DNA of 64,000 bases, taken from positions 76,289 through 140,288 of the IMG/VR virus record IMGVR_UViG_3300038393_000245; one strand, given 5' to 3'. This stretch comes from a virus (taxonomy: Duplodnaviria > Heunggongvirae > Uroviricota > Caudoviricetes). Within the stretch, counting starts at the first letter, position 1. The number at the start of each line of letters is the position of its first letter. Below the pieces are notes generated by a model. The model saw nothing but the letters and a program-made list of their open reading frames with translations, was not told the DNA's origin and did not search any database. The position numbers and the translations under genes are program-made. Positions 11,735-58,594 of the stretch are shown piece by piece.

Positions 11735-11974
11735 ATGGTAGAAAAACTTAGTGTCGAAGATAGGATCATGCTTGTCCTCGAGAATATTGTTCTTCAAGGA
11801 TATGATATTTTGAATGACACTACTTTTGAGGATATGGGATTAGATTCTCTAGACAAAGTTGAAGCATGTATGGATATTGAGGATGAGTTCAATATCGATA
11901 TTCCAGACGAAGTAATGGAGTATCTTGATACTTTTGGGGAACTCGTCGAATATATTAATCGTCGCCTAAAATAA
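11735..11974 (+). CDS. acyl carrier protein (phosphopantetheine-attachment site)
   Basis: 79 aa, acidic. FEDMGLDSLDKVEACMDIEDEFNIDIPDE matches the ACP DSL Ser-attachment motif followed by helix II. Has its own promoter at 11670-11698. Confidence 0.8.
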   Translation: MVEKLSVEDRIMLVLENIVLQGYDILNDTTFEDMGLDSLDKVEACMDIEDEFNIDIPDEVMEYLDTFGELVEYINRRLK

Positions 11975-11977
11975 CGA

Positions 11978-12439
11978 ATGTCTGATATTCAATACATCGA
12001 AGGAGATCTCTTATCGTCTCGAGAACCCGTCATCGCACATGGTTGCAATGCTCAAGGAGTCATGGGTTCAGGAATCGCGAAAGCCATTCGAGACGAATAT
12101 CCCACCGTATACAAGGATTATAGGGATGTATACGAGGAGCAAGGGAATAAACTTCACTTAGGACAAGTTATAACAACGAGAACTCTCGAACGTACTATCC
12201 TGAATATCATCTCCCAGGAGTACTACGGGAGAAACCCGAACGTAGTCTACGTATCATATGATGCAATTGAGAAGGCCATTCTTCGCATCAATAAGATGGG
12301 CTACGTTCGGGTTGCCTTTCCAAAGATTGGAGCAGGACTTGCAAACGGAAACTGGGAACTCATATCCCACATTATCCAGACGACATCGGACTTTACTCCG
12401 GTCGTATATTACATTAAAGAACCGACAGAAAAATGGTAA
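11978..12439 (+). CDS. macro domain protein (ADP-ribose binding/hydrolase, TARG1/DarG-like)
   Basis: VIAHGCNAQGVMGSGIAKAI matches the Gly-rich ADP-ribose-binding loop of OARD1/TARG1-type macro domains. ~150 aa, the single-domain size. Confidence 0.75.
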   Translation: MSDIQYIEGDLLSSREPVIAHGCNAQGVMGSGIAKAIRDEYPTVYKDYRDVYEEQGNKLHLGQVITTRTLERTILNIISQEYYGRNPNVVYVSYDAIEKAILRINKMGYVRVAFPKIGAGLANGNWELISHIIQTTSDFTPVVYYIKEPTEKW

Positions 12440-12709: not shown

Positions 12710-13150
12710 ATGTCAGACGTTAGAGGTTTCTTTGGAGATTACAGGTTCCTGTCGAACTTTTATAAGGCTCGACAAGTTGTCAACGGAATAGAATACATCT
12801 CTAATGAGCACTTCTTCCAGGCTTCTAAATCCACGAACCAACAAGATCACGATTGGGTCAATTCTTCCGAGACACCTGGTATTGCGAAGCATCGTGGGAA
12901 GAGAATTCCGAGACGAGAAGATTGGAATAAAATTCGTCTCGACATTATGAGACTTGGTTTATTGGCTAAGTTCTCTCAAAATCTCTATTTGAAGGATCTC
13001 TTACTAGGAACCGGAAGTTCTTACCTTGAAGAACTTAACGATTGGGGAGATACTTTCTGGGGGACGTGTAGCGGAAAAGGAGATAATCACTTAGGCTTGA
13101 TTCTAATGGACCTCCGAGATAAATTCAGGATTGAAGAGTTGTATGGTTGA
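12710..13150 (+). CDS. NADAR-domain protein (DUF1768/YbiA-like ADP-ribosyl hydrolase family)
   Basis: FLSNFY..NEHFFQASK..DW..I..MR..L.AKFSQN..L...LL.TG...L.E....D..WG....G.N.LG.ILM..R matches the Pfam NADAR consensus along its whole length. Confidence 0.85.
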   Translation: MSDVRGFFGDYRFLSNFYKARQVVNGIEYISNEHFFQASKSTNQQDHDWVNSSETPGIAKHRGKRIPRREDWNKIRLDIMRLGLLAKFSQNLYLKDLLLGTGSSYLEELNDWGDTFWGTCSGKGDNHLGLILMDLRDKFRIEELYG

Positions 13151-30139: not shown

Positions 30140-31318
30140 TTGAAAACAGGTCAGCCCTTATCCCTCAAGAAAGCAAATCCGGTGATCACTCCGAATAAAC
30201 ATCTTATCGGTGTTCGAGAAGCACTTCAGAGGCAAGGATTTGATCTTTGGTTCGTTGGTGGTTGCGTTAGAGATTCTATTCGAGGCGAAGAACCAAAGGA
30301 TATCGACCTGTGCACTAGTGCGACTCCGGAAGAAGCGATTCAAGTCTATGAGAAGAATAACATTCGGTATTTTAAGACCGGAATCGATCATGGAACTCTG
30401 ACTGTTAGAGTTAATGGTCAGTCGTATGAGATCACCTCTCTCCGAACCGAATCAAATCATGACGGAAGAAGGTCGACGGTTTCGTATACTCGAGACATCA
30501 TAGAGGATCTCAGTAGAAGGGATCTAACAATCAATTCTATCGCGCAGAGATTTGATGGATACATCATCGACCCATTTGGAGGCGTCGATGATATTAAGAA
30601 TCATCGAGTCCGAATGGTTGGAAGTGCTTCTGATCGATTCAAAGAAGACTACTTACGAATCTTAAGATTCTTTAGATTCCATGCTAGGTTTGCTGGAGAG
30701 AGCCCTCTCGATCAGAGTGCTCTAGAGGCCATCGAAGAGACTAAGGAAGGTCTCAATCAAATCTCTGGAGAGAGAAAGTGGCAGGAGATTCAAAAGATAT
30801 TAGTCGGACCATCGTCCTCAGCTACTCTTATTCGAATGAAAGATGTCGGAGTCATGAAGTCTATTGGTGTGAAAGACTTCAGTGTCGATAGAATGAAGAA
30901 GTGTGATGAAAAGAAGATCAGTAGATCATCTACCGTTCTTGGAATAATTTCTTATAAGCAGATCATCGAATCCGTAATGAGCGACTGGAGAATGAGCAAC
31001 AGTGAGCGTTCTGAAGCGAGATTCGCGAATCTCTATCATGACGTAACATCAGTGGGCAAATTCAAGGATCTCTTGGTAGACGGAGCTAATATCGACTGGG
31101 TCGAAGAGCTGCTGAAACTTAATGACCTCTCCTCTCTTCGTGAGTGGGAAGTTCCGGTATTTCCAGTCAACGGTCTGGACATCATCAATAAGAAGGGAAT
31201 CAAGACAGGACCAGCGATCGGACTAATCTTAAGGAACCTTCGAGAGAGTTGGAAGAAGTCTGATTACAAACTTACTAAAAAGCAATTGCTTAACCATCAA
31301 TCAATGCCTCGGAGCTAG
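30140..31318 (+). CDS. tRNA nucleotidyltransferase (CCA-adding enzyme / poly(A) polymerase head-domain family)
   Basis: LWFVGGCVRDSIRGEEPKDIDLCT matches the class II GGxVRD...DxD head motif. The RDLTINS and RFFRF motifs are also present. Start uncertain (TTG 30140 or GTG 30182). Confidence 0.8.
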   Translation: MKTGQPLSLKKANPVITPNKHLIGVREALQRQGFDLWFVGGCVRDSIRGEEPKDIDLCTSATPEEAIQVYEKNNIRYFKTGIDHGTLTVRVNGQSYEITSLRTESNHDGRRSTVSYTRDIIEDLSRRDLTINSIAQRFDGYIIDPFGGVDDIKNHRVRMVGSASDRFKEDYLRILRFFRFHARFAGESPLDQSALEAIEETKEGLNQISGERKWQEIQKILVGPSSSATLIRMKDVGVMKSIGVKDFSVDRMKKCDEKKISRSSTVLGIISYKQIIESVMSDWRMSNSERSEARFANLYHDVTSVGKFKDLLVDGANIDWVEELLKLNDLSSLREWEVPVFPVNGLDIINKKGIKTGPAIGLILRNLRESWKKSDYKLTKKQLLNHQSMPRS

Positions 31319-34508: not shown

Positions 34509-35033
34509 TTAAATTGAAGAACAACGTCTTGGTTGTCTCCTCACGACAGTGGCGTACGTAGTGGTCCATGCAATGTAACCATAATCGATAGAATTTCGAA
34601 CGGATGTTCCTCCCGAAGCTGGAGTTGTTGTCACAACAACTTCAAGAGCAGAACCATCCGGAACGGTTAATAGGCTACTATTCCAAGTGAAAGTAAAATT
34701 TTGACTTGAACTTGGAGCAGCCGTTACTGATTGAGCGGAACTAGTAGCAAGAGCAGCTGCTCCTCCAGTTTCCCATATCGCTATAGTGAAGGTAGGAGTT
34801 CCAGTGTTAGTACTATTCTTTCGAGCCTGAACTGTTATTGTTTGAAGACCGGCTCCAGATGTCAGAACTGGAGTAGGAGTAGGAAATCCTACTCGGATAG
34901 TAGACGCTACGTTGCTAGTAGACGCGGTGGTCCAGTTGGTGTCTTGAGCTCCAAGATTGGTAGTTGTAGCAGTTCCAGCAGTAACATTCGAGGATGATAC
35001 GATCGTATCTGGTGTTAATATCTGATTAGCCAT
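34509..35033 (-). CDS. Thr/Ser-rich structural protein (174 aa)
   Basis: Sits between the two fibre genes. Confidence 0.45.
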   Translation of the reverse strand: MANQILTPDTIVSSSNVTAGTATTTNLGAQDTNWTTASTSNVASTIRVGFPTPTPVLTSGAGLQTITVQARKNSTNTGTPTFTIAIWETGGAAALATSSAQSVTAAPSSSQNFTFTWNSSLLTVPDGSALEVVVTTTPASGGTSVRNSIDYGYIAWTTTYATVVRRQPRRCSSI

Positions 35034-37675
35034 TATGACCTCACAACAAAGGCTATATCCTGGAGAGTTGAATCAGGAGAAGCTGGAGCCTCTATCCACG
35101 CTAGATCACCACTACTAATAGATCCTGCCGTTATACTGACGGTTGCTGTAGTTGATGCCGCTCCGAAAGTAAAGGTGCCAATGGTTGTAGGACTTGCTAT
35201 CGTTCCTTTTTTAAGAGTGAACACCGTGCTGCCAGTAGCAGCGACCAAACTTTTCGCAGCACTATTAGTCTGACTGATCGTAACGGGATACTGGAAGATA
35301 CCTAGGACGTATCTCTCATTAGCGAGTGTCGTTCCGGTAACAGTGTAGTCCTTACCGTCAACTTTATTAGCTGCAGTAATGTTACCAGATGCAGCAATAG
35401 CAGCGGCACTAACTGTTCCAGTGAAAGTTGGAGAAGAAGTTGGAGCCTTAGCATTAAGAGCGGTCTGAAGATCGGTCTGACTGCTTAAAGTTCCTGTAAT
35501 ACTTCCCCACGACGCAGGACCAGCGGTTCCTGTTATAGAACCTCCTGCTGGCTTAAGTATTCGAATATAATCACCAGCACTATCGGTTGTTATAGTGACA
35601 GTAGTTCCACTTAGAGTGTAGTTTGTAGTTGGAGCTTGTAGAACTCCGTTAACAAACACCTCAATATCATCAACAGTAAGGCCACTCTCAGGGATTGTGA
35701 CTGTTTGTGATGCTCCTGTACCAGTAGCGGTAACCGGAGACCATGCCATTCCACTATTTCCACCCGCTGAACCGGTGAAACCAGTCGGACCAGTAGATCC
35801 CTGAGATCCAGTGAATCCAGTCGGCCCAGAAGACCCAGATGAACCAGTGAAACCAGTAGGGCCCGTTGTTCCCTGCGAACCAGTGAATCCCGTAGGACCT
35901 GCAACAGTAGACGCCGATCCAGTGAACCCAGTAGGACCTGTTGTTCCCTGTGACCCAGTAAAACCGGTTGGCCCGGTCGAACCCTGAGAACCCGTAAATC
36001 CAATCGATCCTTGCGACCCAGTGAATCCGGTCGGACCAGTAGGCCCTTGTGATCCTTGCGACCCCGTGAACCCGGTCGGTCCAGCGACAGTAGAAGCAGA
36101 TCCAGTAAAACCAGTCGGACCAGTAGGCCCTTGTGATCCTTGCGATCCAGTAAAACCGGTAGGACCCGCAACAGTAGAAGCAGATCCAGTGAACCCAGTC
36201 GGACCTGTTGCACCACTAGATCCCGTAAATCCAATCGATCCTTGCGATCCGGTGAATCCAATTGGACCTTGTGATCCTTGCGACCCAGTGAAACCTGTAG
36301 AACCAGAAGTTCCAGCCGATCCCGTGAACCCAGTCGGACCTGATGAACCCTGTGAACCGGTAAAACCAATCGGACCTGATGAACCAGTTGATCCAGTAAA
36401 ACCAGTCGAACCAGTGAACCCTGTTGGTCCGGTAGAACCAGAAGATCCAGCAGAACCAGTGAACCCTACTGGCCCAGTAGACCCTTGCGATCCAGTAAAT
36501 CCTGTTGGTCCAGAAGTTCCAGCCGATCCCGTGAACCCAGTCGGACCTGATGAACCCTGTGAACCGGTAAAACCAACATTACCTTGAGCTCCGCTTGAAC
36601 CAGTAAACCCAGTAGATCCTGTTGTTCCCTGTGACCCTGTGAATCCGGTTGGTCCAGCGACGGTAGACGCCGATCCAGTAAACCCAGTAGGTCCTGTTGT
36701 TCCTTGCGAGCCAGTGAATCCAGTCGGCCCAGCAACAGTAGAAGCAGATCCAGTGAACCCAGTAGGACCAACAGGACCAGTAGAACCCTGAGAACCAGTA
36801 TATCCGATATCACCTTGAGCACCGGTCGACCCGGTGAATCCAGTTGGACCCATCGCGCCCATGGATCCAGTGTATCCTATGTCACCCTGCGATCCGGTGT
36901 ACCCCTGAGATCCGGTCGACCCAGTATATCCCTGGCTTCCAGTATATCCAATACTTCCCTGTGACCCGGTGTATCCTATATCACCTTGCGATCCAGTGTA
37001 CCCGATTGGTCCCTGAATATTTCCTACATTCTCCCAAGCACTCCCGTTCCATACATACAGATCACCATTAATGAGATATGCGTCTCCACTAGTTCCACTT
37101 GCGGGAAGTTCTGCGGTGCTAGAAAATGACCCCTTAATGTTGATTCCGTTTCCAATCGATCCAGTGTATCCAATTGAACCCGTGTAGCCAAGATCTCCCT
37201 TAGAACCAACAAACCCAGTTAGTCCTATAGTTCCCTGCGAACCAGTATATCCGATTACGCCCTGATCTCCAGTAGAACCAACATATCCAATTGGACCGAT
37301 ATCCCCTTGAGAACCGGTATAGCCGATGGGACCAATGTCTCCTTGTGATCCGGTGAATCCGACGGACCCCGAATATCCCGTTGTTCCTATTGATCCAGAA
37401 TATCCGATATCACCCTGCGATCCGGTATATCCAATCGATCCAGTATATCCTAGATCTCCCTGTGAACCAACGTATCCTGTCGATCCATCGTACCCAATCG
37501 AACCTTGTGAACCGGTGTATCCAATCGAACCAGTGAATCCAACTGACCCAGAATATCCTCTAGTGATCTGAAGAACCTCGACAGAGATAGCGTCAGGGTC
37601 TGTTATCACCGATAGAGGAGGCGATCCAATCTCTGTTACTTGTTCTATCTCGATATTATAGGCCATCTGATACAC
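35033..37675 (-). CDS. collagen-like triple-helix repeat tail-fibre protein (880 aa)
   Basis: Hundreds of G-X-Y triplets ([30 protein letters not shown]) between non-collagen N- and C-terminal domains. Confidence 0.75.
35700..37560. repeat. imperfect tandem nucleotide repeats encoding G-X-Y collagen triplets
   Basis: Recurring ggatccagtgaacccagt(c/a)ggacc-type units within the collagen-like gene. Confidence 0.7.
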
Positions 37676-49672: not shown

Positions 49673-51435
49673 TGCTTCCTACTATTGTTGGACTTAATTC
49701 GATAAGATTGGCTAGATCTACTGCTAATGATTTTGGCGGTCCTGTTTTGGCGCGCGATGAGCGTGGAAGATTCGTGTCTCTTGCTCAAGCTGCAGCCAAC
49801 GATACGGTCGATATCTTTCAGAAGACTCTAGATCGAATCATGGCTAGGCACAATGGTCACGATAGACCAATTCCTAGAGCTGCTAATGAGCTCACGGCAT
49901 TTGAGAAGACCATGGATCGAATCATGCAGCGCCATAATGGTCATGATATCGATATGCCAGAAGCATCTAACGATATGAGATTTAGAATATTTCACGATCC
50001 AGCCGGTCCTTTAGCTCAAGAGGATAGAAATAAAGATAACCGAGATTGGGAGCCGTACGTTATTCCTCCAGAAAAGAAGATGAGGACACTAACTCTTCGA
50101 AATAGATTAGAAGACCTAGATGATGACGAAGTAGATGATCTTGAGAAGGGGAAAGCTAAGAGGACTAATATTCTTCTTCGAAAGATCGAAAAGAACACCG
50201 AGAAGTCTACTAAGCTCTTACAACAGATAGAGAAGCAGCTTATTAATGATGACGATGGAATGGGAGTCCATTCTCTGAGGGCTAAAGAAATGGCTCAAGA
50301 GGACTGGCAAGGAAATTATCCATCCGGCTCAAAAAGTAATTCTGGCATGGCTCCAGAGGGCAACCAGAATGGCACAAGTTCCTGGGATAAAAAGCTAGAA
50401 GCCCTTAATAGCCTTAAAGGGAATGTGATAGGGGCTCTGGCATTTCTTGGAATCGGAGGATTCGCAAAGCTTATCGGAAAAATTCTTGGAACTAATCCAG
50501 ACTCTCCAGGAGGAGGATATAAACCAGGTAGAACTCCAGATCAGAAGATTCGTGGAGACGCTCCGAAGCCTTCTCCTAGCGTTCCTGGACCAATTGCAAC
50601 TAGACCAAGTGTGATTCCTTCAAACCAGGTTCAAGGAAGGAATTCTAAAGGTCGAAAAGATGAATTGCAGATAATGGCGTTTAGTTCTTTTAAAAAACTC
50701 GGCTACACCGATGAAGCAGCAAAGACTCTAGTTTCGGAAATTGGAAGAGAAAATGGATTTAATGAAGACGAAACTGGAAAATTAGGAGACATCTTTGGAT
50801 ATCATGTTGATCCATACAACAAAGTAACAAATGTCGGGATGTTTTCATGGCAAGGATCTAGAGCCAAGAATTTAGAGAAAATTTTGAAAGAGAAAAAATT
50901 GCTTGTTAATGGAAAAATCAAGAGATCTCAAGAATCAATGGATGTCATGGCTGAATTTCTTGATGAGGAAATGAAACTCGATGATAAAATGAAAGATGCC
51001 AGAGCTGCTCTATTTGATTCAAATAAAACATATGATGATATACAAGACATAATAGGCAGGAAAGTTATAAAATGGAGGATCGATGACCCTCGCTACAGGG
51101 ATAAGGGTCTTAAAAATCAAGATCATTTTTTCAACTCTATTTCTTCACTTGTTAAAGGAAGAAATAAACCGACAGAAAAAGTCATTGGGGCTGAGTGGAA
51201 ATTAGATCCTAAAGAAGTCACCAAGCAGGCTCTAAAAGATTTGAAATCGAATCAGGGCAAGGCTCAAAAGATGGTGAATGGATCGATTGTTGTTAACGAG
51301 GGAAGCAAATCGGTGATCATAATGAATCCTCCGAAGTCTCCTCCATCAAACCAAAAGACTCCAGAAAAGAAAAGAGTCCCACCATCAAGGCAGGACTCTT
51401 GGTTTGATACCGTGAAGCACTATTTCGATTTTTGA
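49672..51435 (+). CDS. tail tube length determinator / baseplate hub gp29-like (587 aa)
   Basis: Size matches T4 gp29 (590 aa). Coiled-coil rich, Gly-rich hydrophobic segment mid-protein, internal repeat DRIMARHNGHD / DRIMQRHNGHD. Confidence 0.55.
   Translation: MLPTIVGLNSIRLARSTANDFGGPVLARDERGRFVSLAQAAANDTVDIFQKTLDRIMARHNGHDRPIPRAANELTAFEKTMDRIMQRHNGHDIDMPEASNDMRFRIFHDPAGPLAQEDRNKDNRDWEPYVIPPEKKMRTLTLRNRLEDLDDDEVDDLEKGKAKRTNILLRKIEKNTEKSTKLLQQIEKQLINDDDGMGVHSLRAKEMAQEDWQGNYPSGSKSNSGMAPEGNQNGTSSWDKKLEALNSLKGNVIGALAFLGIGGFAKLIGKILGTNPDSPGGGYKPGRTPDQKIRGDAPKPSPSVPGPIATRPSVIPSNQVQGRNSKGRKDELQIMAFSSFKKLGYTDEAAKTLVSEIGRENGFNEDETGKLGDIFGYHVDPYNKVTNVGMFSWQGSRAKNLEKILKEKKLLVNGKIKRSQESMDVMAEFLDEEMKLDDKMKDARAALFDSNKTYDDIQDIIGRKVIKWRIDDPRYRDKGLKNQDHFFNSISSLVKGRNKPTEKVIGAEWKLDPKEVTKQALKDLKSNQGKAQKMVNGSIVVNEGSKSVIIMNPPKSPPSNQKTPEKKRVPPSRQDSWFDTVKHYFDF
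49828..49947 (+). repeat. ~37-nt direct repeat inside the gp29-like gene
   Basis: ctagatcgaatcatggctaggcacaatggtcacgata and atggatcgaatcatgcagcgccataatggtcatgata. Confidence 0.6.
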
Positions 51436-52412
51436 TTCGAAGGGCAGCGTTCTAATTTACCATATATAACGCACCATCCAAAATCATGAAGTTTTTCTCC
51501 GTAATCTTGAAAGTCTTCACATGACTTTACTCTCTTGTTGGGATCTCTCTTGAGATCAAAACATCCCTTGGCCGACTTATTATATTCTGAGAACATCTCT
51601 TGAACGTCGGCTATAGTGGAACTCGTAACCCTATCATTCATTTCTTGATTCACACCTGAGCACGCCCAAGTTTGACCAATAGAGCACAATTTGTCGTACA
51701 TCTTAGGCGTACACGGCCCATCTCCTGAATTACACTTAGATAATTCATCATCGGACTTGAGTTCCTGAGGTGTGGGGCATGCTTCCAATTTAAGCAGCGA
51801 CCTGCACCATCCCATTCTTTGGAGCTGCATCTCAACTTTGTTGCTCTCATCACATACTGGAGCTCCACTGATTCCACCTCCCAAATCAGCACACTCATCA
51901 GACAGTTTCATTACTCTTCGGTACAACCTGTACACCAACTCATGGTTCCTAGCCACTACGCATGATTGAGAATCGCCGAATCGGCACAGTTGCTTGGTTA
52001 CCATGTACATTTGGTCTGCTGTTCGAGTGACTTGTTCACAATTCTCGTGATCCCGTTTTTGATCACACGCATTTTGAACAGCAACAAGAGTCTGGTTGAG
52101 TTCCTGAACTCCCTCGGGAGTTATCCCATCAGGATACTTAACTCTATCACACGAGACATATTTGTTTGGAGTCCAACACTCCTTGAACCGACTCTGCATT
52201 TCTACACTGTAATTGTCGGACTTATCGCAAACGTCCTGGTTTCCAGTCTTCTGACACTCTTTCAGAAGAGGATAGAACTTCGACTTGAGCTCCTTGAGAC
52301 TCAGCTTTGCCGGTTGAGCCGATGGAAGTTCAACGGTTGTCTGCGTCGTGTTCTGGTCTGGAGCTCTAGAACAGGCTCCAAGAATTAATGCGACTAAGAT
52401 AATGTACCTCAT
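51420..52412 (-). CDS. Cys-rich secreted lipoprotein (330 aa)
   Basis: Lipobox LILGAC. About 30 Cys in repeated C-x(6-9)-C modules. Promoter TTGACA-N17-TAATAC at 52432-52460. Confidence 0.6.
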   Translation of the reverse strand: MRYIILVALILGACSRAPDQNTTQTTVELPSAQPAKLSLKELKSKFYPLLKECQKTGNQDVCDKSDNYSVEMQSRFKECWTPNKYVSCDRVKYPDGITPEGVQELNQTLVAVQNACDQKRDHENCEQVTRTADQMYMVTKQLCRFGDSQSCVVARNHELVYRLYRRVMKLSDECADLGGGISGAPVCDESNKVEMQLQRMGWCRSLLKLEACPTPQELKSDDELSKCNSGDGPCTPKMYDKLCSIGQTWACSGVNQEMNDRVTSSTIADVQEMFSEYNKSAKGCFDLKRDPNKRVKSCEDFQDYGEKLHDFGWCVIYGKLERCPSNQKSK

Positions 52413-52515
52413 GACACTCCTCCATACACTAGTATTATTCTAGTAATAAGAAAATGTCAAGGCAAAAATAAAAGGGAGAGACCGAAATCTCTCCCTCCTA
52501 TCATGTTAGTGTGTA

Positions 52516-53442
52516 TTAATCCTCGCTAGCGAGTTTCTGGAAGAATGACAGAGTGTCGTCTCCATCATCATCCGAACCAAATACCTCTGATGAGGATTCG
52601 GACAGAGTAGGACCTGGTTCAAATGGAAGATCGTCGTCTTCCACGGTCCTTCGTGATGCGGCTGCCTGTTGACGAACAGATGCAGCATCGGAACCGAGAC
52701 CAAGAACCTGGTCGAGCTTTTTCTTCAGCTCGTCATAGCTCTTGTAATTCTCTGGAGATAGAATCGCCTGAAGAGAGTGGGTCTGTTTCCAAGTGTCTTC
52801 GATGAATTCATCGCCTCCCATGCTCGATGGATCGTCAAACTCAGACTTATCGTAGTTAGGATATCCCTCGACCATGCGAATCTTGAGCTTGAAATTCGCT
52901 CCTTCCCATGGATCGAATGGGTTCATCGGACTCTCGTCCTCGAACTCTGGATTCATCTTCTCATTAAGCTTGTTAAAGATCTTCTTTCCGTATTTAAACT
53001 TAAAGACCTTACCCTCGTTCTCTGGATTTGCAGCATCCTTGAGAACTAGAATATTAGAGACGAAGTGCTGACGACGCTTTTGCTTGCGAGCCTGCTTACG
53101 CTCTGGTGACTCATCGTCTCCAGATGCAGCCCACAGATTTCCATTGAATTGAGCGACAGGATCTTCCTGTCCGATAGATGTTAGTGAGTTCTCGATATAC
53201 CACTTACCAGTCGGACCCTGGAATCCATGATCCCAATATCGGACATACGGTGCGCTCTCTCCTGGAGGAGCTGGTAGAAATCGGATTACCGCGTAGCCAT
53301 TTCCGGCCTTATCGCGAGTTGGCTTCCAGTAGGTTTCGTCCTGAGTACGCTGGTTGCCTTTGGTGAGCTTCTCTAGATCAGAAGCTAGTTTTTCAAAGTT
53401 AGACTTAGAATTCTTTTTCAGGTCAGCAAAATTTGATGCCAT
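52516..53442 (-). CDS. single-stranded DNA-binding protein gp32
   Basis: DKAGNGYAVIRFLPAPPGESAPYVRYWDHGFQGPTGKWYIE matches T4 gp32 [40 protein letters not shown]. Acidic C-tail. Confidence 0.9.
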   Translation of the reverse strand: MASNFADLKKNSKSNFEKLASDLEKLTKGNQRTQDETYWKPTRDKAGNGYAVIRFLPAPPGESAPYVRYWDHGFQGPTGKWYIENSLTSIGQEDPVAQFNGNLWAASGDDESPERKQARKQKRRQHFVSNILVLKDAANPENEGKVFKFKYGKKIFNKLNEKMNPEFEDESPMNPFDPWEGANFKLKIRMVEGYPNYDKSEFDDPSSMGGDEFIEDTWKQTHSLQAILSPENYKSYDELKKKLDQVLGLGSDAASVRQQAAASRRTVEDDDLPFEPGPTLSESSSEVFGSDDDGDDTLSFFQKLASED

Positions 53443-53520: not shown

Positions 53521-53551
53521 CTTGCCAAGAAGCCAGCCTCTCTAGTGCATT

Positions 53552-53581
53552 ATTTATATCACATTACTATGAAAATGTCAA
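53552..53581 (-). promoter_or_regulatory. composite early/late promoter for gene 32 (TTGACA-N17-TATAAATA)
   Basis: ccTTGACAttttcatagtaatgtgaTATAAATAatg. The -10 doubles as the T4-type late motif. Confidence 0.6.
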
Positions 53582-53586
53582 GGTAA

Positions 53587-54156
53587 TTATGAGGAGTGAG
53601 CTAGCGCTAGAGCCTCACTAGCTGACATCTCATTTGACGAGTACGCCACCACCCACCAATCAGTTTGGCCAGGCTCGAATTGATCGGCCGCTGCCGGGTT
53701 ATCGATACCAAGCTTGATGCTGATACGGCGTGGTTGATTTGGTGCTTCAGTCTTTTCGTTATAGCTGAAATACTTGGTACTTGTTAGCTCGATCGTCTTA
53801 AGATCGGTGCCATACTCAGTACGCGAGTAACACTTCATTGGAGACCAGAACACTGCTTTATCGATGTTAGGACGAGTTTCCTGTCGAAGATATATCAAAT
53901 AGAGTTCACCATTAATCTCATGAGTCGTACCATTATGTTCGACGATTCTCTTAGGGATGGTGATCTCATTGCCGAAATGTAATTCTGCGGTTCCCGACGG
54001 AGAATAGCGAGTGAATACCACGTTCTCGTTCTCCGGGTGATAGTGAGCCATAAACTGGTTCTCACAGACGACATTCAGAGAGACTCGATGTCCCTTATCA
54101 TACTGGTTGTTGAAGGTCTTCTGTTCTTGAACAGACATTTTGCCGATTACTGACAT
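53587..54156 (-). CDS. hypothetical protein (189 aa)
   Basis: TATAAATA late motif at 54343-54350 and a 190-nt hairpin-rich leader. Confidence 0.5.
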   Translation of the reverse strand: MSVIGKMSVQEQKTFNNQYDKGHRVSLNVVCENQFMAHYHPENENVVFTRYSPSGTAELHFGNEITIPKRIVEHNGTTHEINGELYLIYLRQETRPNIDKAVFWSPMKCYSRTEYGTDLKTIELTSTKYFSYNEKTEAPNQPRRISIKLGIDNPAAADQFEPGQTDWWVVAYSSNEMSASEALALAHSS

Positions 54157-54349
54157 TATTGATTCCTTTGTTGATACGCGCTCTCATGGCTACGGGTGTA
54201 GCATTGCGCCTATGAGGCGCGTTGATTTAATGAGAAGCGCCCGTCGGAACCAAGATCTACAGATGACGGAATATCACATCGTCATAGGGTCATGGTCTGC
54301 CCGGTGAGCAGAGTCGTGATAGAAGAACTCCATCACGACTCTATTTATA

Positions 54350-55723
54350 TCACATTCTAGCTCGATTTCTAATTTCTTCAAAAGTAGTCTCATTAACGAC
54401 GATTCCATCTAAGAATCGAACCTTCAATAGATTCTCACGACTACCAAGCTCTTCTTGTCTAATAGTCTTATATTCGTTAGATTCCTTAATGAGTGACAGA
54501 CGTCCCTTTTTGGACTTCTTTCCGGAGTCAGTGATTGGATCCTTAAACACATCGATCCATTTTCCATTCACTTTAGCCGCGCTGCACTTCATCGCGAATT
54601 TAAGTGTATCTCGATTAACCTGTTGAAGGAGAGCTCCTCCCTGTCCAAATGCTATATTGTCAGCACTATATCCAGCTAGTGTTAGAGTAAACAGGATCGA
54701 TCTAATGCTCGAATGATCGATTCCATCTCCCTGAATGATTCGAACGTTGTTAAGAACACGATATCCCTTATCGTTAACCGTACTTCCAAAATATTCATCA
54801 AGAATTTGAGCACACTTCTTGACAACCGTAGCAGGATCTCCCGAATCTGGTCGAACTACTAGAGTAGCTCCACTTTGAAGAACATCATCCTTAAGAACAG
54901 TTCCCCACATCTTGCAGGCTTCGAAGATATCATAGGAATCGGATACACAAGCTATCAGACCTCCGGGTTTACCATGGTTCTTAATCATGTTTCGATATGA
55001 ATCAACTTCATGATCGCGGCCCCAACTGGTTACGGTAGAGTGCTCCATAGCTGGAATGCTAAACCCGGGAACCGAATCAGAAGCATAATGGTTCATGATA
55101 TAGGATAGTGCTTCGACAGTATCCGTTCCCTTAAAGTTGATAAGGTGAGCGGCTCCACCAATGGCTGCCGATTCTCTCGAAGAGACTCCACGAGCTCCAA
55201 AATCATGAAGCTTAAAATCGATAAGTGATGGATCTCCAGTTTTATTCAGACAGTCTAGAATGATCTCTTTCGAATGATAGCTATTACTGGCTACCGTCGT
55301 AGGATACCAGATCGCCCTTAACAGAGCCGTCTCAAGGAACGAGGTTAGCCACCAGCACGCTGGATCAGTATTGAAGATTGCGGCCAATATATTCTTAGTA
55401 GGAAGAACAGTACCTTCATCAATTCCTAAGATACAGACTGGAAGTTTCCCTCTATGATTCTCTACTATGTAGTCCCATCCTTCTCGATAAAATGGAAGTC
55501 CATGAGAGGTGATAATATCTTGAGCCTCATTAACATCTTCGTTAGTGACTACACAGTCTCTAAGATAGTGTACAAATGGTTGAAGCCCATTGTAGACAAC
55601 TTTATCATAGAGACCACCTCTTGATTCGATATAGGACCAAACAAACTCAGTGTTCGGAGGGTACTGATTCCATTGCGAATACTTGTATGAATCGCTATTC
55701 AGAATAATATTACTTGTAGTCAT
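54350..55723 (-). CDS. nadV: nicotinamide phosphoribosyltransferase (NAMPT/NadV)
   Basis: NSDSYKYSQW..YPPNT, LHDFGARGVSS, INFKGTDTV, RPDSGDP and QGDGI blocks align along the whole length with NAMPT. Confidence 0.95.
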   Translation of the reverse strand: MTTSNIILNSDSYKYSQWNQYPPNTEFVWSYIESRGGLYDKVVYNGLQPFVHYLRDCVVTNEDVNEAQDIITSHGLPFYREGWDYIVENHRGKLPVCILGIDEGTVLPTKNILAAIFNTDPACWWLTSFLETALLRAIWYPTTVASNSYHSKEIILDCLNKTGDPSLIDFKLHDFGARGVSSRESAAIGGAAHLINFKGTDTVEALSYIMNHYASDSVPGFSIPAMEHSTVTSWGRDHEVDSYRNMIKNHGKPGGLIACVSDSYDIFEACKMWGTVLKDDVLQSGATLVVRPDSGDPATVVKKCAQILDEYFGSTVNDKGYRVLNNVRIIQGDGIDHSSIRSILFTLTLAGYSADNIAFGQGGALLQQVNRDTLKFAMKCSAAKVNGKWIDVFKDPITDSGKKSKKGRLSLIKESNEYKTIRQEELGSRENLLKVRFLDGIVVNETTFEEIRNRARM

Positions 55724-55763
55724 TGTAAAACTCCTTTACAACATTAAAATAAGCGTTTATCGC

Positions 55764-56810
55764 TTATCTGATCAATGGAACGAAATTAGTGATGATATCA
55801 TAGTGATCGTCAAAGAGTTCCTCTCTCTTAATACTTACGAATGGAACCCACTTGGCTTTTTCAGCATCATCTGCTCCCTTAATCTTCGGGAGCTTCCATT
55901 CTCCTCCTTGAAGAGAAATATGAGCAGCGAATGTAATTGATCTTCCGAGTTGCGATCTATTTTTAGCAGAGAAGTGTCTCTCACTCTTAATCGATCCTCT
56001 CAGAACTTTATCCGGGACGTCGATTCCTGTCTCCTCCTTCAACTCTCGAATAATTCCATCTAGAGGAGTATCATCATTTACGGCATCGAAATATCCTCCT
56101 GGGAGAGCCCATAGACCCTTTCCAGGATGAGACCTACGCTTAATCAATAGAATGTGACCACTCTGAGTGACTACAGCGTCGCACGTTACATTGACCACCG
56201 GATAGGGAAGAGACTTGTACTTTTCTCTATATGAATCAACGATTCTCTTCTCTTCTAGAATGTTTTGAAATTCTTCGGTTGATCTAAATCGTATCAAGAA
56301 AGAGATGACCGACTGAGGCATCACTCCAACAAGGAAATTAGAGTTGAACTTATCGGAAAAGTACATCTCTCGAATTTGAGTCGCATCTAAGATGTTGACA
56401 AAGTCGGCAGGAACTTCTTCCCATTGAGGAAACATTTCGAGATATCTTTTAGTCTCCAAGTCCTTCTTGTGCCCAATGATTCCAATCCTATCACCGTTAT
56501 TGGTATACCATGATACTGTCTCCTGAATTCGAGCGACCCATGCGTCATCATCATACAGAGTATCGTCGTTGTATTCGAATACATACTCGGCTGAAGTGAA
56601 GTCAGAGAGACGCTGTACTTCTTCGGAGAGCATATCAATACGCTCTTGGTATGTCCACGGGTTCTTGAATGTTCTGGGAGCTTTAGCAGATCCGATAATG
56701 ATGATGACTTGATCGGCTAGTTTTCCAGCTCGCTCTAATAGCTCGAAATGAGCGTTGTGTGGAGCCTGGAATCGTCCAATGAGGACAAGTGTATTATAAG
56801 GTTTTTTCAT
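55764..56810 (-). CDS. bifunctional NMN adenylyltransferase / Nudix ADP-ribose pyrophosphatase (NadM-Nudix, NatV-like)
   Basis: N-terminal GRFQAPHNAH ((H/T)xGH nucleotidyltransferase) and C-terminal Nudix box GGYFD..DDTPLDGIIRELKEETGI. ATAAATA late motif at 56861-56867. Confidence 0.85.
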   Translation of the reverse strand: MKKPYNTLVLIGRFQAPHNAHFELLERAGKLADQVIIIIGSAKAPRTFKNPWTYQERIDMLSEEVQRLSDFTSAEYVFEYNDDTLYDDDAWVARIQETVSWYTNNGDRIGIIGHKKDLETKRYLEMFPQWEEVPADFVNILDATQIREMYFSDKFNSNFLVGVMPQSVISFLIRFRSTEEFQNILEEKRIVDSYREKYKSLPYPVVNVTCDAVVTQSGHILLIKRRSHPGKGLWALPGGYFDAVNDDTPLDGIIRELKEETGIDVPDKVLRGSIKSERHFSAKNRSQLGRSITFAAHISLQGGEWKLPKIKGADDAEKAKWVPFVSIKREELFDDHYDIITNFVPLIR

Positions 56811-56871
56811 ATCGCAAAACTCCTTTGCGTGTATAGTAACAGAGTCTATCTCTGTTACTTGTATTTATCAC

Positions 56872-57114
56872 TCAGAACGGAAGTCGATTCCTTTTTCTAT
56901 CATCCTTAGTCATACAATATTTAAGAACATTCTTAAGATGAGTTCTCATGTCGAGAGAGTACTCTAGATCCTCTATATGGTGTGGGAGAAGAGACTCTTT
57001 CTTAGCTAGAGACGTTTCAATCTCATCGCCAATCATGCTCCACCAATGAAGGATCTCTTTTTGGACGATCTGATCGATTTGTTCTTGAGTTATTTCAAAT
57101 GTAAATCTTGCCAC
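56872..57114 (-). CDS. hypothetical protein (80 aa)
   Basis: ORF track. Confidence 0.45.
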   Translation of the reverse strand: MARFTFEITQEQIDQIVQKEILHWWSMIGDEIETSLAKKESLLPHHIEDLEYSLDMRTHLKNVLKYCMTKDDRKRNRLPF

Positions 57115-57708
57115 TTATTCTTCTCCAAATACATCCAAAACGATCTTCTTAAACTTATTAAGATCGTACTTCATAAAGGGTTGATATTTAATAATGAGTT
57201 TGGACACTTCTTTCCAGATTGGATCGTCTCTTAAAACTTTGTTCCATTTTGGAAAACACTTTGTAAGATGGACGAGTATAATGAGCGTTTCAAGACAGAT
57301 TCGTCCAGAAAGGAATTTTCTAAGAAGCTCTGGATGTCGTCCATCTTCCACTGTAAAGTTGTCGTCAAAGTTCGGTTCGAGTAGTCCCATTTCAGATCTA
57401 AAATTGTAGGTAAGGGATTGGTTCCTTTTGAGCCATTCTTTGTATCGTTGTTCCGATTGTTCATTAATTAAATCTCCAACCCAAATGTTTCTATCATGAA
57501 TGATATTAGAAAGAATGTATGATGATGGATCTCGGTGTTTAGCTAACTTATCGAAGAAATATTTGTCTCGTCTTTTTTCGAAAGACTTGACGCTAACGTT
57601 TAGCTTCCCTCCGTATCGGAAGTAATCATACGAATCTTTTGTGAAGTGATTCTTAAGAGCTAGATACTTCTGATAGGTTTCGAACGGTGTCATTAATCTC
57701 AACGCCAT
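57115..57708 (-). CDS. helicase loader gp59-like
   Basis: KSFEKRRDKYFFDKLAKHRD matches T4 gp59 AAYQKRRDKYFFQKLSEKY. 197 aa against 217 aa. Confidence 0.8.
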   Translation of the reverse strand: MALRLMTPFETYQKYLALKNHFTKDSYDYFRYGGKLNVSVKSFEKRRDKYFFDKLAKHRDPSSYILSNIIHDRNIWVGDLINEQSEQRYKEWLKRNQSLTYNFRSEMGLLEPNFDDNFTVEDGRHPELLRKFLSGRICLETLIILVHLTKCFPKWNKVLRDDPIWKEVSKLIIKYQPFMKYDLNKFKKIVLDVFGEE

Positions 57709-57988
57709 TATCTCTCAATGCTCTAACTATAGAACTTATAAGACCAAAATCATTTCGTCCAGTATCTTTAGACCACTTAATGGCTTCAACACACGCATTA
57801 TATGCCTTGTCATTAATCTCAATGGACATTTCTCGATAGTCACAGCGATCATTAAAAACTCTTCGAAGATAAGAGGTTCCTCCATCAACCGCTACACTTC
57901 TACACTCACAATGTACAAAATCATGTCTATGAGAAGAATATGGTTCATCACCACAGTTATTGCAGTGAACTTGGTTTGAGAGAATCAT
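57653..57988 (-). CDS. Cys/His-rich zinc-binding protein (111 aa)
   Basis: CNNCGDEP..HCEC. Overlaps the gp59 start by ~56 nt. Confidence 0.45.
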   Translation of the reverse strand: MILSNQVHCNNCGDEPYSSHRHDFVHCECRSVAVDGGTSYLRRVFNDRCDYREMSIEINDKAYNACVEAIKWSKDTGRNDFGLISSIVRALRDNGVEINDTVRNLSEVSSS

Positions 57989-58093: not shown

Positions 58094-58321
58094 TCAGTCA
58101 TCTATAGGAAGCTTAGCCGAAGACTTAATGATGTTAAGGTTCTCTGCCTCAATCTGTATCTTAGCACGAAGAACAGCGTCCTTTTTGATAAGAGAGGCGG
58201 CGGTTTCTATGTCTATGTTATTTTCTTGGCACCAGTGACAGACGGCGTCTATTATATCCGTCTTGCCTCCTTTGGTGAGGCGCTCGATCTCCTTAGAGAG
58301 ATCGACATTAAATTTTGACAT
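58094..58321 (-). CDS. late-transcription accessory protein gp33-like (75 aa)
   Basis: IDAVCHWCQENNIDIETAASLIKKDAVLRAKIQIEAENLNII resembles the T4 gp33 C-terminal region LEATTAFLEENSIPETQFAKFIPSGIIEKIQSEAIDENLL. T4 order is 33-59-32. Confidence 0.45.
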   Translation of the reverse strand: MSKFNVDLSKEIERLTKGGKTDIIDAVCHWCQENNIDIETAASLIKKDAVLRAKIQIEAENLNIIKSSAKLPIDD

Positions 58322-58594
58322 TTATTCCAATTCAACGATTGTATGGATCATCTTTTCTGGATCCATTATACACCACATGATGCATTTTGTCAACAAAAGA
58401 ATGAATAAAAAGATTAGAGGAGTACTTGGTAGGAATAGATACGCTAGAACAATGGAGATGACGTCTATCGATAGTATAGTCCAGTAGAATGCTACTCGGT
58501 CAAACGGACATGGTATATGACACATGCCATATCCGGCAAAGTATAGCGCCGCCAGGATTCCTAGCAGGATAGCGCTAACTATAAGAATGAACAT
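58322..58594 (-). CDS. small membrane protein (90 aa, 3 TM)
   Basis: Hydrophobic. Confidence 0.5.
   Translation of the reverse strand: MFILIVSAILLGILAALYFAGYGMCHIPCPFDRVAFYWTILSIDVISIVLAYLFLPSTPLIFLFILLLTKCIMWCIMDPEKMIHTIVELE

Follow-up and report, generated by a model that had tools for sequence, protein, structure and literature searches.

The T4-like myovirus KVP40 encodes two enzymes, NadV (Nampt) and NatV (Nmnat), that make NAD+ from nicotinamide, ribose-5-phosphate and ATP, a pair named NARP2 by Osterman and co-workers (bioRxiv 10.1101/2024.02.11.579819). The same study reports that KVP40 Nampt and Nmnat abolish type I Thoeris and DSR2 defence, that Nampt prefers phosphoribosyl pyrophosphate (PRPP) and uses ADP-ribose pyrophosphate (ADPR-PP) weakly, that NARP2 raises NAD+ also in defence-free cells, and that the KVP40 operon is toxic in E. 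coli. NARP2 was found in about 1.1% of phage genomes, with Nmnat also encoded in 94% of Nampt phages, and no phage was found with both the NARP1 and the NARP2 pathway (bioRxiv 10.1101/2024.02.11.579819). Here, we describe adjacent natV and nadV genes in a 64-kb window (the whole stretch of DNA that was analysed, to which all coordinates refer unless a contig is named) of the ~174-kb genome of an uncultured T4-like phage, IMG/VR record IMGVR_UViG_3300038393_000245, together with a two-hairpin RNA leader that precedes each gene. Taken as a whole, our results make it very probable that the locus is a portable NARP2-type cassette, set in the gp33-gp59-gp32 gene block, in which each cistron has its own two-hairpin leader.

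As judged from its sequence, the pair appears to be of the known NARP2 kind, found here in an uncultured T4-like phage. It shares with the KVP40 system (in which NadV/Nampt is KVP40.0264) the enzyme families, the domain architectures and the predicted chemistry, and both phages are T4-like myoviruses. The layouts differ: in KVP40 natV and nadV appear to be non-adjacent, whereas here they adjoin each other between gp59 and gp32. Two segments of KVP40 were read, the nadV-bearing 137-187 kb and 195-245 kb, and neither contains natV; in TCU-VP03-AIR1, a KVP40-like phage, ~43 kb separates the two genes. In addition, KVP40 nadV has no leader motif, whereas both genes described here have the two-hairpin leader. 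The NARP1 (Adps plus Namat) and NARP3 (PnuC plus NadR) pathways yield the same end product and have the same proposed purpose against NAD+-depleting defence, but start from other substrates, ADPR-PP for NARP1 and imported nicotinamide riboside for NARP3. Finally, bacterial nadM-nadV operons (Synechocystis slr0787, PDB 2qjo; Francisella, 2qjt; 7yqo) have the same gene order and domains, whereas the phage copies stand in a replication block and have a late-promoter-like box.

Enzyme identity and predicted pathway

NadV (457 amino acids) has the full-length two-domain architecture of a nicotinamide phosphoribosyltransferase (NAMPT), with Pfam domains NAMPT_N (3.4e-28, residues 5-98) and NAPRTase (1.3e-59, residues 170-412). 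Over residues 2-456 it scores 605 bits with the NCBIfam equivalog NF006629, above the cutoff of 405, and it matches both PDB 7yqo (E 1.6e-156), a Xanthomonas NAMPT deposited as 'Pre-B cell enhancing factor related protein', and human NAMPT 2gvg (E 2e-118, 46% identity). Identity is also 46% to KVP40 NadV over the full length, and 52-57% to diverse bacterial NadV proteins from many phyla; the latter spread gave no signal from which a host or donor could be named. In an HMMER alignment to 2gvg_A with scripted residue mapping, NadV keeps human D16, Y18, H191, F193, R196, D219, E246, H247, D279, R311, D313, G353, D354, G383, G384, R392, K400, K415 and K423. The sole checked residue that is changed is human S275, which is Ala here and likewise in the Xanthomonas enzyme. 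We take H247 of the human enzyme to be the site of autophosphorylation, D219 to give nicotinamide specificity, Y18 and F193 to stack on the base, and R196, R311, D313, G353/D354, G383/G384, R392, K400, K415 and K423 to contact PRPP or nicotinamide mononucleotide (NMN). NadV is thus predicted to make NMN from nicotinamide and PRPP.

NatV (348 amino acids) combines CTP_transf_like (8.8e-12) and NUDIX (1.9e-16) Pfam domains and matches, end to end, the NadM-Nudix proteins of Synechocystis (PDB 2qjo, 2.8e-67) and Francisella (2qjt, 5e-53). We compared it with 21 homologues, including members on 0.3-0.44 Mb contigs taken as bacterial, and with the canonical motifs (H/T)xGH, SxTxxR-type and Nudix box GX5EX7REUXEEXGU. 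The first NMN adenylyltransferase (NMNAT) motif reads GRFQAPHNAH, in which H18 and H21 are invariant and Ala stands for Gly in 19 of the 21; in the second, DATQIR, A143 and R147 are invariant and T144 nearly so, and this ATxxR form is also found in Francisella NadM. The Nudix core REx2EE (R255, E256, E259, E260) is likewise invariant. The Nudix box is G-x7-D rather than G-x5-E, with a two-residue insertion and Asp for the first Glu, and because all 21 homologues have the same form, we regard it as a subfamily trait and not as decay. We considered whether NatV is inactivated, given its H-x-A-H and its odd Nudix box, and rejected this reading, as both traits are common to the whole subfamily.

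These results uphold most of what a first-pass annotation of the window had proposed for the pair: its open reading frame (ORF) boundaries agree exactly with the ORF list, the assignments of NAMPT and of a bifunctional NMNAT/Nudix enzyme are confirmed by the domain and structure matches, and the two-enzyme phage NAD+ pathway that it named corresponds, by sequence, to the published NARP2 type. The PRPP-binding Asp and Arg residues of NAMPT, which it had singled out for checking, are all kept. The comparison with KVP40 that it proposed could be made for NadV but not for NatV, since KVP40 natV was not located; NatV is instead ~37% identical to the NatV of KVP40-like vibriophages.

By this assignment, NadV would convert nicotinamide and PRPP to NMN, and the N-terminal half of NatV would convert NMN and ATP to NAD+. 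The Nudix half would most likely cleave ADP-ribose to AMP and ribose-5-phosphate, from which host PRPP synthetase would again make PRPP. A NARP2-type pathway of this kind would restore NAD+ after its destruction by TIR or SIR2 defence effectors, a role that we infer for this phage by analogy with the KVP40 literature.

It is possible, if somewhat doubtful, that the pair is instead an auxiliary metabolic module that keeps NAD+ high for the phage's own needs, such as nucleotide synthesis or ADP-ribosylation. KVP40 and Stenotrophomonas phage Ps15 were first interpreted in this way (PMC9025141), and the interpretation fits with the rise in NAD+ that NARP2 causes even where there is no defence system, with the location of the cassette in a replication gene block and its wide spread among large phages that infect many hosts, and with the use of the same operon and the same leader by bacteria for ordinary salvage. 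Against it stand the full abolition of Thoeris and DSR2 defence by the KVP40 pair and the presence in the window of Macro and NADAR genes, which fit a wider conflict over ADP-ribose and NAD. The anti-defence and metabolic roles are compatible with each other. It is very improbable that NadV is a NARP1-type Namat that uses ADPR-PP made by Adps rather than PRPP: Namat and Nampt are homologous, KVP40 Nampt uses ADPR-PP weakly, and the rest of the genome lies beyond the window, but NadV is 46% identical to KVP40 Nampt and human NAMPT, keeps all of the residues that contact PRPP/NMN, passes the NadV equivalog cutoff and adjoins an Nmnat gene, no PRPP-synthetase-like ORF was seen among the window ORFs scanned, and no phage has been found carrying both pathways. 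Adps, NadR and PnuC were also not seen among that part of the window ORFs which was scanned. On a related viral contig (L260), we observed a PnuC transporter gene (1187-1753, Pfam 4.3e-48) ~1.7 kb 5' of nadV; that contig mixes NARP2-type and NARP3-type parts.

The two-hairpin leader: structure, conservation and distribution

Directly before each of the two genes we found two consecutive hairpins, P1 and P2. At natV, P1 (56835-56859) has a 10-bp stem and the loop AUAGA, and P2 (56813-56829) has the form CGCAAA-GGAGU-UUUGCG, with the Shine-Dalgarno sequence in its loop and the AUG following at 56810. The 76-nt stretch that holds this leader folds at -18.9 kcal/mol (z -3.1), and the leader is kept with compensatory changes in the related contigs L002-L005. 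At nadV, P1 (55747-55769) has a 9-bp stem and the loop AUAAA, a variant of AUAGA, and P2 (55723-55741) is UUGUAAA-GGAGU-UUUACAA, the last base of which is the A of the AUG. The 61 nt that span the intergenic region here (55715-55775), with the P1 hairpin and P2, have a minimum free energy of -13.4 kcal/mol (z -3.4). The 11-mer AAAGGAGTTTT occurs in the window only at the natV and nadV ribosome-binding sites.

Across the collected leaders, P1 has a freely changing but paired stem, a closing G-C pair and the loop AUAGA (general form A-N-A-G-A), with the variants ACAGA, AAAGA, AGAGA and AUAGG. In P2, the stem is A/U-rich, the loop (GGAGU or GGAUU) is formed by the Shine-Dalgarno sequence, and the 3' arm extends into the AUG. 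The P1 and P2 helix cores are 6-16 nt apart, with a single case of 20. P1 and P2 are separate hairpins, and no alternative pairing was found; inspection by eye for a pseudoknot or loop-loop pairing of AUAGA with the linker, the P2 loop or the start region gave no consistent complementarity.

Our first collection of leaders required a hairpin, and its pairing statistics are therefore circular; the tests that follow are independent of it. In 1.44 Mb of bacterial and phage loci, the word GATAGAC is present at chance frequency (84 copies found, 88 expected). The 120 nt upstream of nadV and natV starts nevertheless hold 31 of these 84 copies, compared with an expectation of about one. These upstream copies have flanking stems, and the remaining copies do not. 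When run on a plain MAFFT alignment, RNAalifold predicted both helices, with compensatory changes in 10 of 12 pairs. Apart from these independent tests, in a model-fitted alignment of 44 distinct sequences 93.6% of cells were paired and double changes were present in all 12 pairs, involving 217 cells compared with 65 in shuffles. Pairing fell to 33-46% when the partners were shifted by one to three columns.

The leader is also specific for its genes. A covariance model (CM) built from 23 sequences gave 47 matches, at E values up to 1, in 0.92 Mb, all of them on the sense strand and, where checked, at nadV/natV 5' ends; the rest of the window, 100 kb of KVP40 and the region of phage DLP_6 that was read gave none. 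On 80 independently fetched viral nadV loci it gave 107 matches, of which 64 stand before nadV (in 64 of the 80 loci), 37 before natV and 5 before small uncharacterised ORFs of the same cassette; the remaining match, at pnuC, is false. The pnuC match, on L260, has a P2-like hairpin at the ribosome-binding site but no P1. In 100 decoy viral loci, which contain both conserved words by construction and came from a loose pattern scan of viral contigs that returned mostly chance matches, scores above 30 bits occurred only at true natV/nadV sites.

Outside the window, the leader precedes one or both genes in Methylococcales, Marinicella, Hahella, Pleionea, Endobugula, Alteromonadales, metagenome-assembled genomes (MAGs) of Pseudomonadales and two cyanobacterial MAGs. 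It precedes both genes in two cultured phages, Bacteriophage DSS3_MAL1, a Ruegeria phage (46.6 and 29.4 bits), and Synechococcus phage B23 (35.1 and 23.8 bits). No copy turned up in the loci from Bacteroidota, Acidobacteriota and Thalassospira, the leader is absent in KVP40, QD01 and ACP17, and RSP15 has only a weak, doubtful match (14 bits, E 0.35). Of the 84 bacterial nadV genes that were fetched, 61 lack the conserved loop word upstream, and no bacterial lineage can be singled out as the donor. Neither the two window leaders (E up to 1) nor five bacterial leader loci (E up to 10) have a match in Rfam 15, and in the full-text literature searched we found nothing that ties nadV or nadM to a riboswitch or RNA motif. 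From these results, we conclude with high confidence that the leader is a genuine conserved structure. It is apparently undescribed, and is thus the new part of a locus whose gene pair is itself of a known type.

On related viral contigs, leaders of the natV/nadV type also stand before a 108-aa Cys/His-rich protein (L291:6106-6478, L256:5013-5382, L274:2054-2424), a 117-aa protein (L243:3772-4171) and a 67-aa protein (L271:1389-1639), none of which has a Pfam match. These small proteins may belong to the same regulon, or one of them may be the factor that is missing from it.

The first-pass annotation had given each gene its own ATAAATA late motif, with a terminator-like hairpin between the genes. 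The hairpin is real, but it is P1 of the nadV leader and not a plain terminator. The late motif is present for natV, where it is kept at the same spot in L002, L003 and L004; the T4 late promoter consensus is TATAAATA, and by analogy with it a late promoter at this box is plausible. The proposal failed for nadV: the 40-nt intergenic region 5' of the gene contains no ATAAATA, only GATAAAC, and the promoter-like TATAAATA box directly behind the nadV stop codon belongs to orf189. What both cistrons share is the two-hairpin leader. The window as a whole shows no enrichment of ATAAATA, with 13 copies compared with 11.5 expected. Among 119 distinct leaders, 27 have an ATAAATA box upstream, mostly 3-14 nt before P1 and in one case 26 nt, and in many loci either this box or a -10-like hexamer (often with TTGACA at -35) ends a few to ~20 nt before P1. 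A perfect sigma-70 promoter lies upstream in the block, with no canonical terminator between it and the 3' end of gp32, and read-through transcription is known for T4 genes 33-59-32. Because of this upstream promoter and the lack of a canonical terminator until past gp32, read-through of natV-nadV with the replication genes is likely. The cassette would thus be read through from upstream promoters and also transcribed from the late-type ATAAATA box 5' of natV; we infer the timing of its transcription from these signals.

Placement of the cassette and neighbouring features

Across viral genomes natV and nadV travel together. A same-strand natV is found no more than 3.5 kb from nadV in 72 of the 80 viral nadV loci, with natV almost always the first of the two, and 74 of the 80 have no gp32 close by; because the two genes are linked to each other while the surroundings vary in this way, we regard them as a portable cassette. 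Among phage records, 2,013 have a homologue of NadV and 475 have one of NatV.

In the window, the cassette is part of a single minus-strand gene block at 52.4-58.4 kb (Table 1). Its flanks are gp59 and gp32, as the first-pass annotation had stated, but the interval between them holds four ORFs rather than two, orf80 and orf189 being the additional ones. The corresponding 59-32 interval of T4 indeed has no NAD genes, yet it is not empty, as it carries the homing endonuclease gene segG; in Stenotrophomonas phage DLP_6, gp59 and gp32 are adjacent. The Macro and NADAR genes that had been reported from the same genome are also confirmed by Pfam matches, ~41 kb away from the pair.

Table 1. Positions of the described features in the 64-kb window (CM, covariance model; ssDNA, single-stranded DNA).
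Feature	Position	Strand	Remarks
Perfect sigma-70 promoter, TTGACA-17-TATAAT	58365-58393	-	points down the block
gp33, late-transcription coactivator	58094-58321	-	PF16805 in identical Logan contig L001
DUF7695 protein	57653-57988	-	
gp59, helicase loader	57115-57708	-	upstream flank
orf80	56872-57114	-	small ORF between gp59 and natV; no family match
ATAAATA box, T4-late-promoter-like	56862-56868	-	just 5' of natV leader, 52 nt upstream of natV
natV leader	56808-56857	-	CM R1 50.8 bits, E 1.5e-8
natV	55764-56810	-	348 aa; bifunctional NMN adenylyltransferase/Nudix hydrolase
nadV leader	55722-55768	-	CM R1 43.9 bits, E 5.7e-7
nadV	54350-55723	-	457 aa; nicotinamide phosphoribosyltransferase (NAMPT)
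TATAAATA box	54342-54349	-	starts directly after nadV stop codon; precedes orf189
orf189	53587-54156	-	between nadV and gp32; no Pfam, NCBIfam or PHROG match
gp32, ssDNA-binding protein	52516-53442	-	downstream flank
Strong intrinsic terminator	52467-52502	-	3' of gp32
Macro domain protein	11978-12439	+	Pfam Macro 4.5e-10
NADAR protein	12710-13150	+	Pfam NADAR 2.5e-24

The phage has no close cultured relative: when the 5.4-kb region was compared by megablast with 50,697 deposited phage genomes, no match was returned, and the best match of gp32, in DLP_6, is at 51%. The exact natV product is also encoded on a 22-kb Logan contig and on a 173.6-kb JGI contig. Three relatives whose NatV proteins are 58-71% identical (L002, L003, L004) keep the order gp33-gp59-small ORFs-natV-nadV-gp32, and six IMG/VR contigs have natV-nadV-gp32, three of them also with gp33-gp59 upstream. 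Among the contigs that keep the gp59-natV-nadV-gp32 placement, NatV identity falls to ~53-58%. The small genes around the pair are less constant: different small ORFs occupy the orf80 position in relatives, orf189 is present in only some of them, and L003 has a 61-aa ORF between natV and nadV. On L002 (JGI 3300072491), a 63-aa ORF and a 315-aa radical SAM protein lie between the two genes (7044-8184). Base composition shows no break at the pair. The pair had been viewed as an accessory insertion, which holds relative to T4; that it is a private or recent insertion does not hold, because diverged relatives have the same order, and the arrangement is ancestral to a clade.

The product of orf189, a family with 51 representatives in 1.84 billion proteins, is modelled by AlphaFold2 as a beta-barrel (pLDDT 92) with weak fold likeness to the RNA polymerase subunit Rpb8/RpoG (Foldseek E 1e-4, TM 0.43-0.46), and its homologues are stand-alone genes in unrelated phages. 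On these grounds we rejected a role as an NAD-related enzyme and place orf189 outside the NAD pathway. In non-T4 phages it is found in an island of RNA genes, comprising a tRNA, orf189, an mmgR/suhB-like small RNA, a permuted alpha-type tmRNA and more tRNAs. A second conserved structured RNA occupies the gap between the nadV stop and the orf189 start (54157-54349, minus strand, core ~54235-54312) and is also present in L002, L214, L091, L092, L298, L299 and L300. It has the form GCUC-ACGGGCAGACC, followed by a variable hairpin with the conserved loop GAUGUGAYAUUCC and then UCYYGGUUCCG-GGGCGCU. Its helices are nested, with compensatory changes in 7 of 22 pairs (8 sequences); it accompanies the orf189 family into unrelated phages and has no match in Rfam 15.

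We also observed several features elsewhere in the block and the window. The gp32 gene has a composite promoter, TTGACA-17-TATAAATA (53551-53581, minus strand), followed by a hairpin at a conserved position; this promoter could be usable by both sigma-70 and the late machinery, and L002-L004 have the same design before orf189 or gp32. Between gp32 and a gp5-like hub/lysozyme gene lies a gene for a 330-aa Cys-rich protein (51420-52412, minus strand) with a lipoprotein-type signal peptide, MRYIILVALILGAC, and no family match. An acyl carrier protein-like ORF (PP-binding, 1.9e-10; 11735-11974, plus strand) stands directly 5' of the Macro domain gene. The plus-strand segment 38074-40317 contains an ATP-dependent DNA ligase, a 233-aa ORF and a protein with a cREC_REC 'cyclic-phosphate processing receiver' domain, in that order, and near it is a CCA-adding tRNA nucleotidyltransferase (30140-31318, plus strand); together, the ligase, cREC_REC protein and CCA-adding enzyme may form an RNA or tRNA repair module. 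Finally, an 880-aa tail-fibre-like protein (35033-37675, minus strand) consists mostly of collagen-like G-x-x repeats (GYTGSQG etc.).

Possible roles of the leader and their implications

The leader would most likely set the translation level of each enzyme. In the many loci with a promoter-like box shortly before it, P1 would come at the very start of the mRNA or close to it. P1 and P2 are separate hairpins for which no alternative pairing was found, and coupling of the two would call for a loop-recognising partner. We favour a self-contained mechanism, either a metabolite-binding RNA or autogenous control by NatV or NadV, because the leader travels with the cassette across phyla and phage types.

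Our foremost candidate, put forward tentatively and with somewhat less than even confidence, is a protein-bound translational operator. The operators of MS2 replicase and of T4 gp32, gp43 and RegA are small hairpins that contain the Shine-Dalgarno sequence and start codon, with recognition of loop bases and variable stems. The leader would resemble these operators in such respects, but differs from them in being a two-hairpin unit shared by bacteria and unrelated phages. A broader proposal, which we regard as possible but hardly probable, is that the leader represents an undescribed class of cis-regulatory RNA that is dedicated to NAD+ salvage and ties translation to NAD status. It would then bind either a metabolite directly or one of the encoded enzymes, and the PRPP-consuming rebuilding of NAD+ would be switched on mainly when defence has depleted NAD+.

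We give similarly low credence to the possibility that the hairpins are ordinary ones with no specific regulatory partner, a passive arrangement in which P1 is a terminator or 5' stabiliser and P2 presents the ribosome-binding site. A U-rich run often follows P1 (at the window nadV and in L004, L043 and L064), P1 begins a few to ~20 nt past a -10-like or ATAAATA box in many loci, where a hairpin at the 5' end would protect the mRNA, P1 and P2 are independent of each other, and KVP40 works without them. However, from cyanobacteria and several gammaproteobacterial orders to unrelated phage types, the stems vary freely but the loop G-ANAGA-C is retained, and the element is confined to natV, nadV and a few small adjoining ORFs, with a narrow spacing of its helices; generic terminators and stabilisers have no such gene-specific conservation of the loop.

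A riboswitch is, in our estimation, an unlikely candidate. The NAD+-I (nadA motif) and NAD+-II (pnuC motif) riboswitches are likewise cis-acting RNAs in the 5' leaders of NAD genes, and NAD+-II acts on the ribosome-binding site (PMC10085692). In contrast to them, the leader is built of two plain hairpins with loops of 5 nt, lacks internal loops and has no detectable pseudoknot, its gene set is nadV plus natV, and neither nadA nor pnuC motif of Rfam 15 matches it.

We rejected, as having almost no chance of being correct, the reading of the P1 palindrome as a DNA operator for the ADP-ribose-responsive repressor NrtR: NrtR does control nadM-nadV and prs-nadV operons through 21-bp palindromes near promoters (PMC2330246), and P1 is often ~21 bp and next to a promoter, but NrtR sites have conserved arms with a GT-N7-AC core (PMC2330246), whereas the arms of P1 vary with compensatory changes around a conserved, asymmetric GANAGAC centre, the opposite pattern, and the element is always on the sense strand and paired with a ribosome-binding-site hairpin. 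We also set aside the comparison with a different kind of element. P2 resembles a CsrA-type GGA hairpin, but the leader is present in cyanobacteria and a Ruegeria phage, and P1 has no GGA.

Several points weigh against the reading of the locus as a NARP2-type cassette with a regulatory leader. KVP40, the only experimentally tested NARP2 phage, has no leader, and because its pathway works all the same, the leader is not required for the pathway. Little sequence is conserved outside the two loops, and a purely structural role, in mRNA stability or in presenting the ribosome-binding site, is possible. The CM-derived alignments are fitted to the model and overstate pairing. NatV has H-x-A-H rather than H-x-G-H and an atypical Nudix box, both of them subfamily-wide, and it scores below the cutoff of all seven NCBIfam NadM-Nudix equivalogs (PRK05379 models; the best, NF003786, gives 334 bits compared with 397); its full-length PDB matches still place it in the NadM-Nudix family, at the broader level only. 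Lastly, ~110 kb of the genome lies outside the window, where a gene for Adps (NARP1) could lie.

Together, our results indicate that NARP2-type NAD+ salvage is a fixed part of the replication gene block throughout a clade of T4-like phages that are uncultured and probably associated with soil, with Macro and NADAR genes alongside. The drain on PRPP by NARP2 and the toxicity of the KVP40 operon raise the question of how its expression is controlled, and the leader makes that question directly testable. If the leader does sense NAD status, it would be a new class of regulatory RNA, and a phage counter-defence would be induced by the very damage that it repairs.

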